Source: an uncultured Acidobacteriota bacterium | GTDB lineage: Bacteria; Acidobacteriota; Terriglobia; UBA7540 | Direction: 5' to 3' | DNA length: 64,000 bases | Assembly: GCA_963804995.1 (NCBI GenBank) | Contig: CAWDSK010000006.1 | Location: forward strand, 1,312,001 to 1,376,000 | Shown here: positions 26,265-62,874 of the stretch, piece by piece | How positions within the stretch are numbered: the first letter of the stretch is position 1 | Layout: each line of letters opens with the position of its first letter | The notes under the pieces: model-generated | Told to the model about the DNA's origin: nothing | The model's input: the letters and a program-made list of their open reading frames with translations, nothing else | Database searches by the model: none | Translations under genes and position numbers: made by a program

Positions 26265-27521
26265 ATGAAATCCCGAGAGCGCGTGGGGCGAGCCGTCAAT
26301 TTCCAGGAAGCCGATCGCGTGCCGATTGACTTGGGGGGGCTCAAGGCCTCCGGTATTTCGGTCGAAACCTATGACCGACTGACGCGCCAACTTGGCCTCC
26401 AGGTCACGCCGCGCGTGGCCGATTCGCCGGGCATGATTGCGGTAGTGGAAGAGGCGGTGCGGAAGCGCTTCAGCGTTGACGTGGCGTCGGTGGATTTATC
26501 CATGGTGTCCAGCCTCATGACCCCTCGCGACCAATGGGTACCTCGCCGATTATTCTCCGGCACCGATGTGCTATTTTCCCCCCACACACGCATCCAGGAA
26601 GAGCCGGACGGAAGCTGGGTGCTGCTGGATGCCAACGGCGCGCCCACCTCCTTCCGCATGCCCAAGGACGGCTACTACTTCGACGATGTCTCGATCAATC
26701 GCGGCAAGGGGATTGACCCCGCCAAGTTCCACCCCGTGGATGACATCGCAGACGAAGTCCTAAAACAGATGGAGGAATACTCCGCCCAGCTTTATAACGG
26801 CACGGACTACGCGCTGCTGGGATGGGGTGGCGGCGTCTGCTTCCTGGGGCTCAGCGTGATCACGGACCCGCGCTCAAACGTCACCATGGGCATGCCGGAC
26901 CAGTGGATGATGATGCTCCTGACGGAGAAGGAGACCTGCCACGAAATGATGAACCGGTCGGTGGAAGCGAGCATCAAGTGCATGACGCTTCTGCATCAGG
27001 CGGTGGGCGACCGCTGCTTTGCCTGGGGCATTGCCTCGGATGACAGCGGCACTCAGCGCGGCGAGTTCATCAACCCCAAGCTTTGGGCGGAAATGATGAA
27101 ACCCCACTACCAGAAACTCTGCGACTGGGTCCACCGCAACACACGCTGGAAGACGTTCCTGCATTGTTGCGGTTCGATCTACAACCTTATCCCGCATTTC
27201 ATTGCGGCCGGCATCGATATTCTGAATCCCGTGCAGACTTCAGCAGCCAACATGGACCCCGCCCGGTTGAAGAAAGAGTTCGGCCGCAAGATCGTATTCT
27301 GGGGCGGCGGCTGCGATACCCAGAGCGTCCTGGGCGGGGCGACGCCCGCTGAGGTCCGCGAGCATGTCCGGGAGCGCCTCGGAATCTTTGCCCCCGGCGG
27401 TGGCTACGTGTTCAACCAGGTGCACAACATCCAGCGCAACGTGCCCACTGAAAACGTCATCGCCATGCTCAACGCCGCACTGGAGTTTGGGGGGTACGAA
27501 GAGAGAGGGAATAGGGAATAG
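26265..27521 (+). CDS. uroporphyrinogen decarboxylase/cobalamin-dependent methyltransferase family protein
   Basis: DRVPIDLG, LHCCGS, LNPVQ, FWGGGCDTQ, HNIQ. Confidence 0.88.
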   Translation: MKSRERVGRAVNFQEADRVPIDLGGLKASGISVETYDRLTRQLGLQVTPRVADSPGMIAVVEEAVRKRFSVDVASVDLSMVSSLMTPRDQWVPRRLFSGTDVLFSPHTRIQEEPDGSWVLLDANGAPTSFRMPKDGYYFDDVSINRGKGIDPAKFHPVDDIADEVLKQMEEYSAQLYNGTDYALLGWGGGVCFLGLSVITDPRSNVTMGMPDQWMMMLLTEKETCHEMMNRSVEASIKCMTLLHQAVGDRCFAWGIASDDSGTQRGEFINPKLWAEMMKPHYQKLCDWVHRNTRWKTFLHCCGSIYNLIPHFIAAGIDILNPVQTSAANMDPARLKKEFGRKIVFWGGGCDTQSVLGGATPAEVREHVRERLGIFAPGGGYVFNQVHNIQRNVPTENVIAMLNAALEFGGYEERGNRE

Positions 27522-28009
27522 CTGGTAGCCATCTCTGAAACCGCGATGCCGTGTCAAGCGGATTTTAGGTGCCGATTGACAGAAGTCTGCACCTAGTTTC
27601 AGAATGGCAGTCAGCCGGCGAAGCGGAAGCGGGCTCTGCTGGCGAGCAACCCGCCGAGGAATAGCCGGTGGGAGGCTCATCGTAACGACGAGCAGGGGGG
27701 CGATGGGATGATCGCTCCTCCTCCTGGTGGTTACGATAGCTTCCCCATGCCTGAGAAAACGCCCGGCCGATTACGATCCTCGCCGAGTTCGCCACTCCGA
27801 AACTTGCACGGCTAAGTTAAAACACCTCCCTGGGGTAGGGCCAGGTTCTCACCCTGGCCTGCCGGTGGTGCGGTGGCCCAAGAGAAATCCCCAGGCCACG
27901 CACCCCCGACCGCGGCCGAGGAGAAGAATTCTCGCTCGGCCCTTTCTGAAACTCGGAGCCCAGGACGTGGGCGCTTGTCGCTTGCCACGATGTCGCCGGC
28001 GGATGCGCC

Positions 28010-28125
28010 GATTCCAGTCATCTCTACAGGATCACTGCGGGGGTCTCCCGCAGGCCTCAGTCTGTTGTTCGAGGGGCAGTTCCTCATCACGGTTCGGGTT
28101 TGGTTTCCCCATGGCTACCTCAGGC
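28010..28125 (-). ncRNA. putative bridge/seek RNA region of the IS (ends approximate)
   Basis: 5'-GGUAGCCA..ACCGUG..AACAACA..AGAGAUG-3' match the target and donor halves in canonical order. Confidence 0.8.
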
Positions 28126-29166
28126 TTACTGCCCCAGCTTGCCGGCTCTCCGGCCCCAACGTTCGGCCTGGAAAGGTGCTCCGTGTTTCAAAACTCCGTA
28201 AACGCAGCGGGCGACCGAACCCGCCACCGCCGTCTTGGCCACATTGGGGTGCTTGTGGCAGCGCCGCAGGTGCCAGTAACGCTGGCCGAGCGGGCTCTTG
28301 CTGCGCGTCAGGGCGTTGGCGGCGGTGATCAAGGCCCAGCGCAACCAGACCGGACCTTGGCGGGTGATCGGACCATGAATCGAAACCTCGCCACTATCGT
28401 AGGAACTGGGCACCAAGCCGGTATAGTTCAACAGCGCGTCGGCGGAGTCGAAACGCGCCAGGTCTCCGATCTCGCTCCAGATGACCGCCGCCAGCATGTG
28501 CCCGAGGCCGGGGATGGTCTGCAGGAGCGCCACCTGGGGGAAAGCCGCGGCGGCCGCCAGCAGTTCCGCCTCGCTGGTTTCGCGCTCGGCGCTGAGAAAA
28601 TCGTACAGGCGAAACATCCGCTCGAAACACAACTGCGCCGCCGACGAGAGCGCTTGCTGCTGGATCCAGGCTCGCCCCTTGGCGGTGAAGACGCACCGCT
28701 GCGGTCGCAGCCCGTGCATCTCCAGCAGGCTATTGACGCGGTTCTTCGTCTGGGCCCGCAGCCGCGCCAGGCCGCACCGCTGCCGCGCCAGCAGGCGTAA
28801 TTCCCGGATGGAAGGGGGCGGAAACCAAGCCTCCGGTAGCGGCTCCACGTCGTGCACCGCCAGTTTCTTCACCAAGCGCCGAGTGTCCAGCCGGTCCGAC
28901 TTCTGCTTGCGCAAGCTGTCGATCCCCGCCGTGTGCACCCAGTGCGCCCGATCCCGCCACCCCGCCTCTTCCAGCACACTCATCACAAAATAACCGCTGG
29001 TGGAAACTTCCAGAGCGATCTCCGCATCCGGCGGCAGCTCCGCCAAGCGCTGCCGCCACGCTTCCCGCGTGCACTCGATCGGCTCCAGCATTTTTACGTC
29101 TTCCCCGGGCGGAATCATCGCCATCCAACAACGTCCCTTGTGAACGTCCGACGCAACCGGTATCAT
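28126..29166 (-). CDS. IS110 family DEDD recombinase/transposase
   Basis: SDVHK, LEVS, KSDRLD (D-E-D-D); IPGLG, YTGLVPSSYDSG catalytic-Ser motif. Confidence 0.96.
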   Translation of the reverse strand: MIPVASDVHKGRCWMAMIPPGEDVKMLEPIECTREAWRQRLAELPPDAEIALEVSTSGYFVMSVLEEAGWRDRAHWVHTAGIDSLRKQKSDRLDTRRLVKKLAVHDVEPLPEAWFPPPSIRELRLLARQRCGLARLRAQTKNRVNSLLEMHGLRPQRCVFTAKGRAWIQQQALSSAAQLCFERMFRLYDFLSAERETSEAELLAAAAAFPQVALLQTIPGLGHMLAAVIWSEIGDLARFDSADALLNYTGLVPSSYDSGEVSIHGPITRQGPVWLRWALITAANALTRSKSPLGQRYWHLRRCHKHPNVAKTAVAGSVARCVYGVLKHGAPFQAERWGRRAGKLGQ

Positions 29167-29486
29167 CGTCTTGCCTCCTCGTTGAATTTCTTTCCCAGGT
29201 CCAGTCTACCTGGACCCGAGGAGGCATCGCCGTTTCATAACATCACGGTCAGCGTTCTTTTGACCGTGGGCTTTTCCCGCGTTGCCATACCCCCAGCGCG
29301 TAGCCCAGAGGTTTTCGGCTCCGAGACGAATTTCTCTGCGGCACTTTCTCATGGCCTGGCAATGAACCGGTCGGGTTCGGGATTTAAAGTGCCGCAGAGG
29401 AAAGCCAACTGCGCTTACCTCTGCGCTACCCCGCTTTGGAGGTCAAATCATTTACCATATCCTGCACATCCTGTGAGCACTTGCTG

Positions 29487-29529
29487 TTTATATCCTGGGC
29501 ATGGTTCTGTGTCAGTTCAGTAACGCTCA
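29487..29529 (-). promoter_or_regulatory. Crp-like site overlapping -35, promoter A
   Basis: minus strand TGAGC-N6-GAACT, CTGACA-17-TATAAA. Confidence 0.55.
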
Positions 29530-29623
29530 GGTGTTTGGTTACAGTTGCTCAAGCAGATTACATACCCAATCCTCTTCCCAATTAACAACAAGCGTGGCGC
29601 CATTGCCGCGAAAAGGAGGTCCT

Positions 29624-29743
29624 GTGTTCGTTGAACTCATGCCGCTTCTCGCTGGCCGCACTGTGCTCATCACGGTGGCCAGGGTGGATGACAAGACGCT
29701 TCGTGTCAATGTTATGTTTCGAGCAATGGACCAGGCTCCTTGA
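29624..29743 (+). pseudogene. truncated gene resembling the N-terminus of PRTRC system protein E
   Basis: RBS AAGGAGG then MFVELMPLLAGRTVLITVARVDDKTLRVNV; stops after 39 aa; family by pattern recall. Confidence 0.5.
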
Positions 29744-29957
29744 TGCCGGGGAGGACCTACGAGCTTTCCTGGAAGCAAACAAGAGCCGCCTGAAGCTCAA
29801 GGCATGAGACTTGAAGCTGTCGATCTTGCTTGTTAAGAGTTTTTCTGGCTGAAATGGCATAGGGCGAGCCACACCTCTGAAGAAGAGGTCCTCACCGCTG
29901 GCTCGCCTGCTGGTTCGCGTAGTCGACTGGCTCTCCCGGGTGTGCTGGATAAAATCA

Positions 29958-30662
29958 TTAGAACAGGTTGAGTGTAAGGCGGAAGCCGGGATGCCTCACG
30001 TTGAACAAATAATAGACGCCATCAATGTATTCGACATAAAAGTCGTCGTTGTAATCCCAGCCCATTGGCCACCCTTCAGTGTACCCGAACGAGTAGCCGC
30101 CGTATTGGAAGCGGTTATACCCGCCGATCATCCGGGGACGCCCCATGTGGAACGAGTGGTCATGACCGAAATGGGCACGGTAATTGGTGTCAGAAATGCG
30201 GCCATAATGGCCGGCGTTGCCGCCACGGTTGTTAGCAACGGCCTGTGGCTGCTGCCCTCTGGACTGCTGAGCGCGTTGTGGCTGTGCTTTCTCGGCACGT
30301 TGTGGCTGCGCTTTCTCGGCACGTTGTGGCTGTGCTTTCTCGGCACGTTGTGGCTGTGCTTTCTCGGCACGTTGTGGCTGTGCTTTCTCGGCACGTTGTG
30401 GCTGTGCTTTCTCGGCACGTTGTGGCTGTGCTTTCTCGGCACGCTGTGGCTGTGCTTTCTCGGCACGCTGTGGCTGTGCTTTCTCGGCACGCTGTGGCTG
30501 CGCTTTCTGTGCGTGCTGAGGTTGTTGCTCGTGTTGCGGCGCCGCCTGAGGTTTTCCTCCGCCTCCGCCCTTTTCCTCCTCGCCTTTTTGTGCGAATGCA
30601 GGAAGGGTGGTTCCGAGAAGTAAAAGCAGAACTGCTGTACTGATAACTCGCTTGTGGTTCAT
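29958..30662 (-). CDS. secreted protein with AEKAQPQR octapeptide repeats and aromatic-rich C-terminal domain
   Basis: Signal peptide (..LPAFA); RBS GGAGG; own promoter. Confidence 0.85.
   Translation of the reverse strand: MNHKRVISTAVLLLLLGTTLPAFAQKGEEEKGGGGGKPQAAPQHEQQPQHAQKAQPQRAEKAQPQRAEKAQPQRAEKAQPQRAEKAQPQRAEKAQPQRAEKAQPQRAEKAQPQRAEKAQPQRAEKAQPQRAQQSRGQQPQAVANNRGGNAGHYGRISDTNYRAHFGHDHSFHMGRPRMIGGYNRFQYGGYSFGYTEGWPMGWDYNDDFYVEYIDGVYYLFNVRHPGFRLTLNLF
30274..30513. repeat. 24-bp coding tandem repeat, about 10 units
   Basis: CGTTGTGGCTGTGCTTTCTCGGCA units. Confidence 0.95.
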
Positions 30663-30721
30663 AGGTGTTGCCTCCAACTCAATTCACATCTGGCTTTCAT
30701 CCTAATACTCAAGTTACACCT

Positions 30722-62631: not shown

Positions 62632-62874
62632 GGTAGCCACGGTCAGCGCATTTCTGACCGTGGGCTTTTCCCTCGATGACAAACCGGAGTGCATGCACCT
62701 GTTGGCAAGGGGCCGACGAAGCGGGATTCGGGAAACGGGGCTCGGGATTTGGGATTCGGGGTTCACAACTCAGAACTAACTGTTAGCTGTCGGCTTACTT
62801 GACGACGTGCTATTTTCGCCGGGGTACCGTGCACGAGAAGAGCCCACGGTCAGAACTGCACTGACCGTGGCTAC
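62632..62874. repeat. inverted pair of GTAGCCACGGTCAG REPs (62632-62672, 62838-62874) enclosing heptamer runs
   Basis: Uninterrupted copies of the site split by the IS110. Confidence 0.9.

Follow-up and report, generated by a model that had tools for sequence, protein, structure and literature searches.

A REP-targeting IS1111-type insertion sequence of an uncultured acidobacterium and its predicted bridge RNA

What leads an insertion sequence (IS) to the foot of one kind of repeated hairpin in a bacterial genome? The question is raised by an element at 27530-29243 of a 64,000-nucleotide stretch of DNA from an uncultured Acidobacteriota bacterium (assembly GCA_963804995.1, contig CAWDSK010000006.1, forward-strand positions 1,312,001 to 1,376,000; the whole stretch is called the window, and positions refer to it), where a repetitive extragenic palindrome (REP) is interrupted. 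The element is very probably an apparently intact IS of the IS110 family, IS1111-type by its anatomy, that targets REPs under the guidance of a bridge RNA or seekRNA and uses a CA core. That such an element is complete is predicted from its sequence. The original prediction, made from the letters of this stretch, was of an RNA-guided IS1111-type element with a CA core, and the protein family, the sub-terminal repeats, the region downstream of the transposase gene (tnp), the RNA fold and the guide/target covariation all agree with it. To our knowledge, no RNA-guided transposition has so far been studied in the phylum Acidobacteriota.

The site is the same wherever the element is found in the assembly, which comprises 7.55 Mb in nine contigs. 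The four full-length copies (3092, 3092, 3092 and 3087 bits, with identity printed as 100%) all lie at GGTAGC^CA^CGGT, with GGTAGC on one side and CACGGT followed by a hairpin on the other; one of them occupies a variant REP. Insertion at GTAGC^CACGG, as originally proposed, was therefore found in 4/4 copies. Only the core is duplicated: CA stands at both junctions in 4/4 copies, in the window at 27530-31 and again at 29244-45, so the boundary of the element can be drawn on either side of it, and the same holds at its own site for a second family of elements in this genome (family B, below). The last bases of the element are TAACAT, ending at 29243, beyond which come CACGGTCAGCGTTCTTTTGACCGTGGGCTTTTCC and the hairpin CACGGTCAG..CTGACCGTGGGCTTTTCC. 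Insertion is at the foot of a terminator-like REP, on its 5' side, and leaves the hairpin intact beside the left end (LE) of the element.

Empty sites are abundant. With 1.5 expected, the genome has 87 occurrences of the 12-mer GGTAGCCACGGT; the palindrome CACGGT..ACCGTG is present at 68 of them, mostly with a T-rich tail after it. Three matches fall in the window, where 0.22 would be expected. The coordinates given earlier were borne out for the element and for the uninterrupted copies at 62632 (+) and 18084 (+, a variant with an inner hairpin); a further copy, placed at 62838, was also confirmed, though on the minus strand (62875-62864) and with one mismatch (CGTAGC..). The 12-mer was used as the query in place of a 28-nt REP sequence including the loop, which matched the copy at 29244 alone because the loops differ between REP copies.

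The predicted bridge/seekRNA follows tnp on the minus strand (Table 1). From a MAFFT alignment of 14 distinct RNAs, RNAalifold derived a consensus of 22 pairs in five helices, with 98.3% of the cells paired. Compensatory changes are present in 14/22 pairs, as against 7.6 +/- 1.2 after shuffling (0/500 shuffles reach 14) and 1-4 when the partners are slid. The target guides, here g1 and g2, form the two unpaired sides of an internal loop between helices P2 and P3 (alignment columns 33-44 and 59-69), and the donor guides flank the P4/P5 hairpin. Folding of the region after the stop codon, which had been suggested as a check, thus gave a covariation-supported structure with the guides in unpaired loops.

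The decisive evidence is apparent natural reprogramming of this RNA, in which the element ends and AGAGAUG are kept and both putative target guides have switched to match two other REP-like sites. Family B, with four copies in the same genome and tnp DNA 65-67% identical to that of the element in the window (family A), has the target GCTGGCG^CA^GAGC. Its termini are the same as those of A (CATCTCTGAAACCGCGATGCC.. and ..TTTCATAACAT); at the homologous positions its RNA reads GCUGGCGC and GC(GC)UCUG (g2 GCUCUG), and AGAGAUG and the CGAACAAC stretch are unchanged. The comparison was extended to one genome per species of the same order, from which 19 elements were parsed in this genome and eight others. 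Among the 18 elements having the right flank, g1 agrees with that flank plus the core at 8/8 positions in 16, the exceptions being L033 (6/8) and the fragmentary, nested locus L036p (5/8). Likewise, g2 agrees with the left flank at 6/6 positions in 12 of the 15 elements having it, at 5/6 in L018/29 and L019, where the mismatch is of the G:U type and compatible with wobble, and at 4/6 in L033.

By RNA scaffold these elements form three groups (A-, B- and C-type), by guides and target they form three classes (T1, T2 and T3), and the two groupings are mutually uncoupled. In L038 an A-type scaffold is combined with guides and flank of class T2, and in L031 a B-type scaffold with guides and flank of class T1. 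The transposases of B3 (T2) and L031 (T1) are 81% identical, whereas the A and L031 proteins, which both belong to T1, share 59% identity: the target class tracks the guides, independently of transposase relatedness. The covariation between guide and target that had been anticipated across homologs is thus seen as three target classes with matching guides. The guides also predicted a target. In L033 and L037 they read CGUAGCGC and GGUCUG, from which the T3 target GTAGCG-CA-GACC would be expected; it is present 84 times in this genome, 74 times in a palindrome, in a genome that is without an element aimed there. The right ends of L061 and L083 are flanked by CGCTAC. A literature search on natural reprogramming gave nothing relevant.

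Two side observations concern these families. The third REP-like family, GTAGCGCAGACC..GGTCTGC with its 84 copies, includes a run of four at 146-bp spacing on the minus strand (C1:78525, 78671, 78817 and 78963). The second copy of family B (C3:1379539-1382378) holds an IS630-like insert of 1102 bp (C3:1380797-1381898, L208) with HTH_33 and DDE_3 domains, perfect terminal repeats and a TA duplication; the insert lies within the donor-binding loop, so the bridge RNA of that copy should be disabled in cis.

Several points weigh against an RNA-guided element of this layout. Copies in one genome and close relatives are not independent, and the independent events are the class switches within scaffolds. 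The register of g1 is not constant: in T1 it spans six flank bases and both core bases, and in T2 and T3 it is shifted by one, to seven flank bases and the first core base, followed by a U opposite the second core base. As a single sequence the RNA folds unremarkably (z = -1.16; 25/200 shuffles fold equally well), and searches of 27000-30000 and of five related loci in E-value mode gave the bridge RNA no Rfam match. The public sequencing runs with similar sequence, which contained at most 0.18 of the sampled words, are contig sets only and cannot show transcripts, their ends or their strand. The other points lie in the donor half. The consensus of the 14 RNAs shows no helix that closes the donor loop, and the donor, constant across the set, offers no covariation. 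The second donor guide, AACAACA, is weak at 6/7 against AACATCA in the A-type, and the RNAs of the B-type, the C-type and L038 fit ATAACATCA at 7/9 one position further 3' (both counted by eye). Finally, the base A after AGAGAUG pairs with the cognate donor, so the donor loop lacks the handshake arrangement; such pairing is reported to inhibit exchange in IS621 (PMC11208158).

Given these points, an alternative with a real if lesser chance of being correct is that the target half is as described and the donor half is organised otherwise. The left-donor guide would then be A(C/U)AACA.., one position 3' of AACAACA, or the ends would be read mainly by the sub-terminal repeats and the protein, with the RNA giving only AGAGAUG. 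The shifted register of the B-type, C-type and L038 RNAs, where the relatives' form A[C/U]AAC.. is set against ATAACATCA, favours it, as does the missing closing helix, and the role of the long IS1111 sub-terminal repeats in end recognition is thought to be unlike that in the IS110 group (PMC11187229). The A-type RNA scores 6/7 in the register first proposed and 5/6 against ATAACATCA in the shifted one (counted by eye). On the other hand, a CGAACAAC-like stretch is conserved at the expected place in 14/14 RNAs, and the natural donor loop of IS621 also tolerates non-canonical pairs (PMC11208158). Of the left-donor guide proposed originally, AACAACA, the one-mismatch match stands for A, and the relatives favour the register shifted by one.

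The other predicted donor guide and the bases after g2 are more uniform. AGAGAUGA is invariant in 14/14 aligned RNAs, all from elements with the same ends, and equals the right end (RE) plus the core. The AU(G) after g2 is conserved too; it equals the first bases of the left end and has no match to the cognate target, and ACCGUG-AU(G) and GCUCUG-AU both reproduce the flank-core-LE junction sequence. The handshake-like role suggested for AUG after ACCGUG therefore fits the target loop, in line with the handshake guides of IS621 (PMC11208158), and its counterpart in the donor loop, as noted above, pairs with its own donor.

Judged by its domains, the element's protein is an IS110-family DEDD/Ser recombinase. 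The tnp open reading frame (ORF) is the sole long one with a family match: it contains PF01548 (DEDD_Tnp_IS110, E = 1.8e-08) and PF02371 (Transposase_20, E = 3.1e-22) and scores 177.7 bits against NCBIfam NF033542, "IS110 family RNA-guided transposase", for which the cut-off is 140. The candidate catalytic residues D7, E53, D91, D94 and S258 align with residues of IS621, SDRLD standing opposite TDTVD, which holds the third and fourth acidic residues. Matches of solved structure were to the transposases of IS621 (PDB 8wt6) and ISCro4; in IS621, YESG stands against YDSG with its candidate catalytic Ser. The motif GLVPSSYDSG at residues 250-259 and the length of the protein fit the description of IS1111 transposases as 330-350 amino acids with GL-P----S(t)G (PMC11187229). 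Similarity to characterised proteins is low: 51.2 bits to IS621 (IS110 type), mainly over the C-terminal 125 amino acids, 23% identity over 289 amino acids (51.6 bits) to IS4321 (IS1111 type), and at most 31% identity to the best named or plasmid-borne relatives. Relatives are found in 39/137 genomes of the order at E <= 1e-25 (including 2 unpublished genomes); outside this genome, none was found among 400 sampled genomes of the phylum at E <= 1e-40. There is also a weak, sub-threshold match to NF052498, a TIGR-Tas RNA-guided endonuclease (38.8 bits, cut-off 100).

Might such a transposase recognise the REP hairpin unaided, by shape or sequence, with the guide-like identities as by-products? 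The sites of all three target classes have GTAGC/GGCG-CA in common, and each is at the 5' foot of a palindromic repeat that resembles a terminator, so a structural preference of the protein could contribute, and the contig sets described above leave RNA expression unsupported. As a full explanation this is very improbable, since the pair of transposases that is 81% identical has different targets and the pair that is 59% identical the same one, the target class corresponds exactly to the two loop sequences, which lie within a covariation-supported fold, near-cognate insertions deviate from the guides by wobble-compatible changes, and the family has been found experimentally to be RNA-guided (PMC11208160, PMC11187229). 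That the matches are due to chance, or are relics of targets left by imprecise excision in a mere 3' untranslated region or terminator, is hardly credible: in its favour are the shortness of the segments (6-8 nt), the GC-richness of the genome and the lack of significance of the single-sequence fold, but the same two positions co-change to three targets in three scaffold lineages while the helices are kept by compensation, and the guides of relatives predicted a repeat family found 84 times in this genome.

The order of the guides calls for a correction. The order left target, right target, left donor, right donor had been proposed, and it holds only with the top strand of the target taken antiparallel to tnp; in the orientation of the element it is reversed. 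So oriented, the guide on the 5' side pairs with the top (tnp-sense) strand and that on the 3' side with the bottom strand, which is the order of IS1111 seekRNAs, itself reversed relative to the IS110 type (Siddiquee et al. 2024, PMC11187229). The anatomy agrees with that of published IS1111 seekRNAs, which come immediately 3' of the tnp stop, are ~82-154 nt long and carry their match to the top strand on the 5' side of their match to the bottom strand (PMC11187229).

The scheme proposed from these data joins what was computed here (site specificity, the core, the sub-terminal repeats, the protein family, the fold, the covariation in three classes and the independence of target class from phylogeny) with transcription and processing of the RNA, protein binding, the circle and the chemistry, which we infer from the literature on IS621 and on ISEc11/ISPa11. 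The RNA of ~118 nt would fold directly 3' of tnp into two stem-loop domains and pick the insertion site. In the first domain, GGUAGCCA on the 5' side of the loop would pair with the tnp-sense strand of GGTAGC-CA, and ACCGUG on the 3' side with the other strand of CA-CGGT; as these two strands are opposite, both strands of the 12-bp REP foot GGTAGC-CA-CGGT would be read. The second domain would recognise the joined ends of the circle (..CAGAGA-TG-ATGTTA..) through AGAGAUG(A) and, with less clarity, through A(C)AACA... The RNA-bound DEDD/Ser recombinase would swap strands at the shared CA/TG core, placing the insertion at the 5' foot of the REP, whose hairpin would not be destroyed, and after exchange the AU(G) that follows ACCGUG could pair with the incoming donor strand in a handshake-like manner. 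Formation of the circle would also assemble TTGACA-18-GATGAT across the RE|LE joint.

Features outside the RNA are consistent with an IS1111-type element. Both arms of the sub-terminal repeat start 6 nt from the terminus, and their 15 nt lie inside the range of 7-17 bp given for the IS1111 group, whose defining features include sub-terminal repeats and a downstream non-coding region (PMC11208160, PMC11187229). The non-coding flanks of tnp are unequal, with 77 nt before the ATG (short LE) and 596 nt after the stop (long RE). The hairpin at the left end, which pairs the Shine-Dalgarno (SD) sequence of tnp, may limit read-through translation. At the RE|LE junction of the circle, TTGACA-18-GATGAT matches the promoter consensus at 10/12 positions, and the integrated right end with its flank holds no promoter at >=9/12; this circle-specific sequence is consistent with a junction promoter, whose function is predicted.

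Table 1. Observed and predicted features of the element and its surroundings, in window positions
Feature	Position	Strand	Remarks
Insertion sequence, 1714 bp, tnp on minus	27530-29243	-	4 full-length genomic copies and junctions
Left target half GGTAGC, host flank at the element's 3' (RE) end	27524-27529	+	Same hexamer at all 4 copies
Core CA, right target half CGGT and intact REP hairpin CACGGTCAG-loop-CTGACCGTG, then terminator-like GGCTTTTCC	29244-29277	+	
Sub-terminal inverted repeat, RE arm TGAAACCGCGATGCC	27536-27550	.	15 nt, 14/15 (93%) complementary to 29223-29237
Sub-terminal inverted repeat, LE arm	29223-29237	.	Complementary to 27536-27550
LE hairpin UGCCUCCUCG / CGAGGAGGCA	29172-29226	-	10 nt, 100% complementary; tnp SD paired with anti-SD arm
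TTGACA, -35 of predicted junction promoter	27552-27557	-	-10 spans the RE|LE joint; whole promoter in the circle only
Transposase/recombinase, 346 amino acids	28126-29166	-	Pfam, NCBIfam, alignment to IS621
Predicted bridge/seekRNA core, ~118 nt	28135-28018	-	Consensus structure and guide/target covariation
Helix P1	28135-28128 / 28080-28073	-	Overlaps tnp stop codon
Predicted target guide g1, GGUAGCCA	28119-28112	-	5' side of target loop
Predicted target guide g2, ACCGUG + AUG	28093-28085	-	ACCGUG = 28093-28088; 3' side of target loop
Putative donor guide g3, AACAACA	28069-28063	-	Donor loop
Donor-loop hairpin, stem CUGCGGG/CCCGCAG	28053-28035	-	Arms 28053-47/28041-35
Predicted donor guide g4, AGAGAUGA	28025-28018	-	AGAGAUG = 28025-28019
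Conserved structured module, ~95-170 nt	27596-27763	+	Core block 27596-27690 (helices H1-H3)
Conserved motif, beyond the core block and a variable long hairpin	27739-27763		Minus-strand reading GGCGUUUUCUCAGGCAUGGGGAAGC
Sigma-70-like promoter TTGACA-18-CAGAAT, inward-facing (predicted)	27576-27605	+	10/12, 0.1 expected; ends 6-7 nt before the block

The closest known systems are the IS1111 elements with a seekRNA, namely ISEc11, ISKpn4 and ISPa11, the last at a Pseudomonas REP (PMC11187229). Like the element described here, they combine a DEDD transposase of ~340 amino acids carrying GL-P----SG with sub-terminal repeats, an RNA in a long non-coding region right after the tnp stop, insertion into a repeated hairpin, and two short target matches on opposite strands that overlap at the insertion point, the top-strand match being 5'. 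The present element differs in its acidobacterial host and in a much longer 3' non-coding region (596 nt) with an extra conserved module, and it is known from sequence alone. IS621 (Durrant et al. 2024, PMC11208160; Hiraizumi et al. 2024, PMC11208158) resembles it in the internal loops for target and donor, each reading the two DNA strands on either side of a 2-nt core (putatively so for the donor loop of our element), in handshake-type bases that follow the target guide on its 3' side, in insertion into REPs and in a promoter rebuilt at the circle junction, which is predicted in our case. Unlike IS621, where the RNA is 5' of tnp and the core is CT, this element has the RNA 3' of tnp, a guide order reversed relative to tnp, the core CA/TG and long sub-terminal repeats, and its donor-loop handshake position pairs with the cognate donor.

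The type of element is thus already known, and understanding of the mechanism of the family is unchanged. What the locus offers is a clean, fully readable natural example of what would be RNA-guided transposition in an acidobacterium, with a natural experiment built in: three target classes on three scaffolds with constant donor ends, which suggests modular reprogramming that includes exchange of guides between scaffolds. One target guide also appears to tolerate a shift of register by one base, and the elements could add compact new pairs of CA-core recombinase and RNA to the bridge-recombinase toolbox. For a specialist, modular guide exchange is a useful demonstration and no surprise; the conserved module in the 3' region could matter more.

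That module lies in the part of the element where A and B are most alike, which is not the bridge RNA but a stretch ~350 nt further on (27530-27766, 74-75% identity). A lead came from the contigs of four public runs, many of which match only ~27612-27690 and have flanks unlike the window on both sides. With the 95-nt query 27596-27690, matches were found in 54/137 genomes of the order at E <= 1e-4 (including 3 unpublished) and, at E <= 1e-6, in 9/400 genomes sampled from the rest of the phylum. At the loci in the order, the module either follows an IS3-family ORF, at its 3' end and on the same strand, or adjoins IstB. Soil and peat metagenome contigs were scanned with a 31-nt core, which gave at least 120 stretches, from which 80 loci were taken; in 74/80 a same-strand ORF ends <=800 nt upstream of the module. 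By Pfam, 56 of these 74 ORFs are rve/HTH_21 (IS3-like), three rve with HTH_32/HTH_28 (IS481-like), two IstB_IS21 and three DEDD_Tnp_IS110 with Transposase_20; two are other proteins and eight match no family. The C-type relatives L030 and L039 are without the module, and it was not found standing alone in this genome. A narrower core of the module spans 27614-27668, and the loci concerned are numbered L059-L167.

Which strand would such an RNA come from? Among 95 instances, helix H1 covaries at pairs 2 and 3 (C-G/U-A) and at pair 5 (G-C/A-U). Read in the sense of tnp, the intermediates are C.A/A.C in 77 cases versus G.U in nine, so that most of them would be G.U pairs on the antisense strand; the covariation favours the plus strand, antisense to tnp. 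The plus strand of 27611-27775 folds with z = -3.75, and the predicted inward-facing promoter would place the start of the RNA at ~27612, where the conserved block has its edge. Such a promoter was seen in 17/83 instances of the module versus 0/83 for a control region and 0/83 for the other strand; most instances have no consensus promoter. In the loops of the plus strand, conserved purine-rich, SD-like sequences are found (GAAGCGGAG, GAGGAAUA and GGGAGG).

A coding function for the module was also considered, as a number of IS3 ORFs continue through it (..DESPAGYSSASCSPAE..), and in the window a 76-amino-acid ORF occupies 27565-27795. It was rejected because L079, L087 and the window differ in the frame over the upstream conserved motif, many ORFs end ahead of the block, and the paired changes are non-synonymous yet compensatory. 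The module has no match in Rfam in the same searches (27000-30000 and the five related loci), where only a chance-level mir-602 and, at IS3 ends, sub-threshold Acido-Lenti-1 matches appeared. The latter (RF01687, 19-26 bits against a gathering score of 37) are at L087:2980-3020(+), L087:1358-1389(-) and L079:146-169; those in L087 are near the ends of an IS3-family element, whose terminal inverted repeat the motif may be. A literature search found no description of the module, or of a regulatory RNA of transposons that crosses families.

Given the above, the module could plausibly be a second gene for a functional RNA, read in the antisense direction to tnp from the inward promoter near the right end and portable among IS110/IS1111, IS3, IS481 and IS21 elements across Acidobacteriota, a proposal that we hold tentatively and somewhat short of even confidence. 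The SD-like loops suggest action in trans on a feature common to the carrier elements, for which the anti-SD/SD hairpins that gate transposase translation, or a host factor, are candidates. A cross-family antisense or trans-acting regulatory RNA is our favoured guess, made with low confidence. If the module is indeed a functional RNA across unrelated transposases, it would be a common, transferable and undescribed layer of transposon control or host interaction. A parallel exists in Pseudomonas putida, whose ISPpu9 and ISPpu10 (Pares-Guillen et al. 2025, PMC12288879) are IS110-family elements in REPs with an extra element downstream of tnp, there the small-RNA gene ssr9; in ISPpu9, antisense and sense small RNAs act on the structured 5' untranslated region of tnp (PMC12288879). 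Compared by description, the module differs from ssr9 in that it is without flanking duplicated end boxes and is common to other IS families.

Some minor observations remain. The left-end junction TAACATCACGGT occurs five times in the genome versus four times for the right-end junction GGTAGCCATCTCTG, and a fifth, partial or rearranged copy may exist. One DNA contig from a public run (X1) joins 27669 to 29184, omitting 1514 nt that include tnp and the bridge RNA. It could represent a miniature derivative without tnp, a candidate that was set aside since the shorter side of the join, at 28 nt, is too weak to call. At 700 nt from the element, a 239-amino-acid ORF (29958-30677, minus strand) encodes ~10 tandem QPQRAEKA octapeptides after a signal-like N-terminus.

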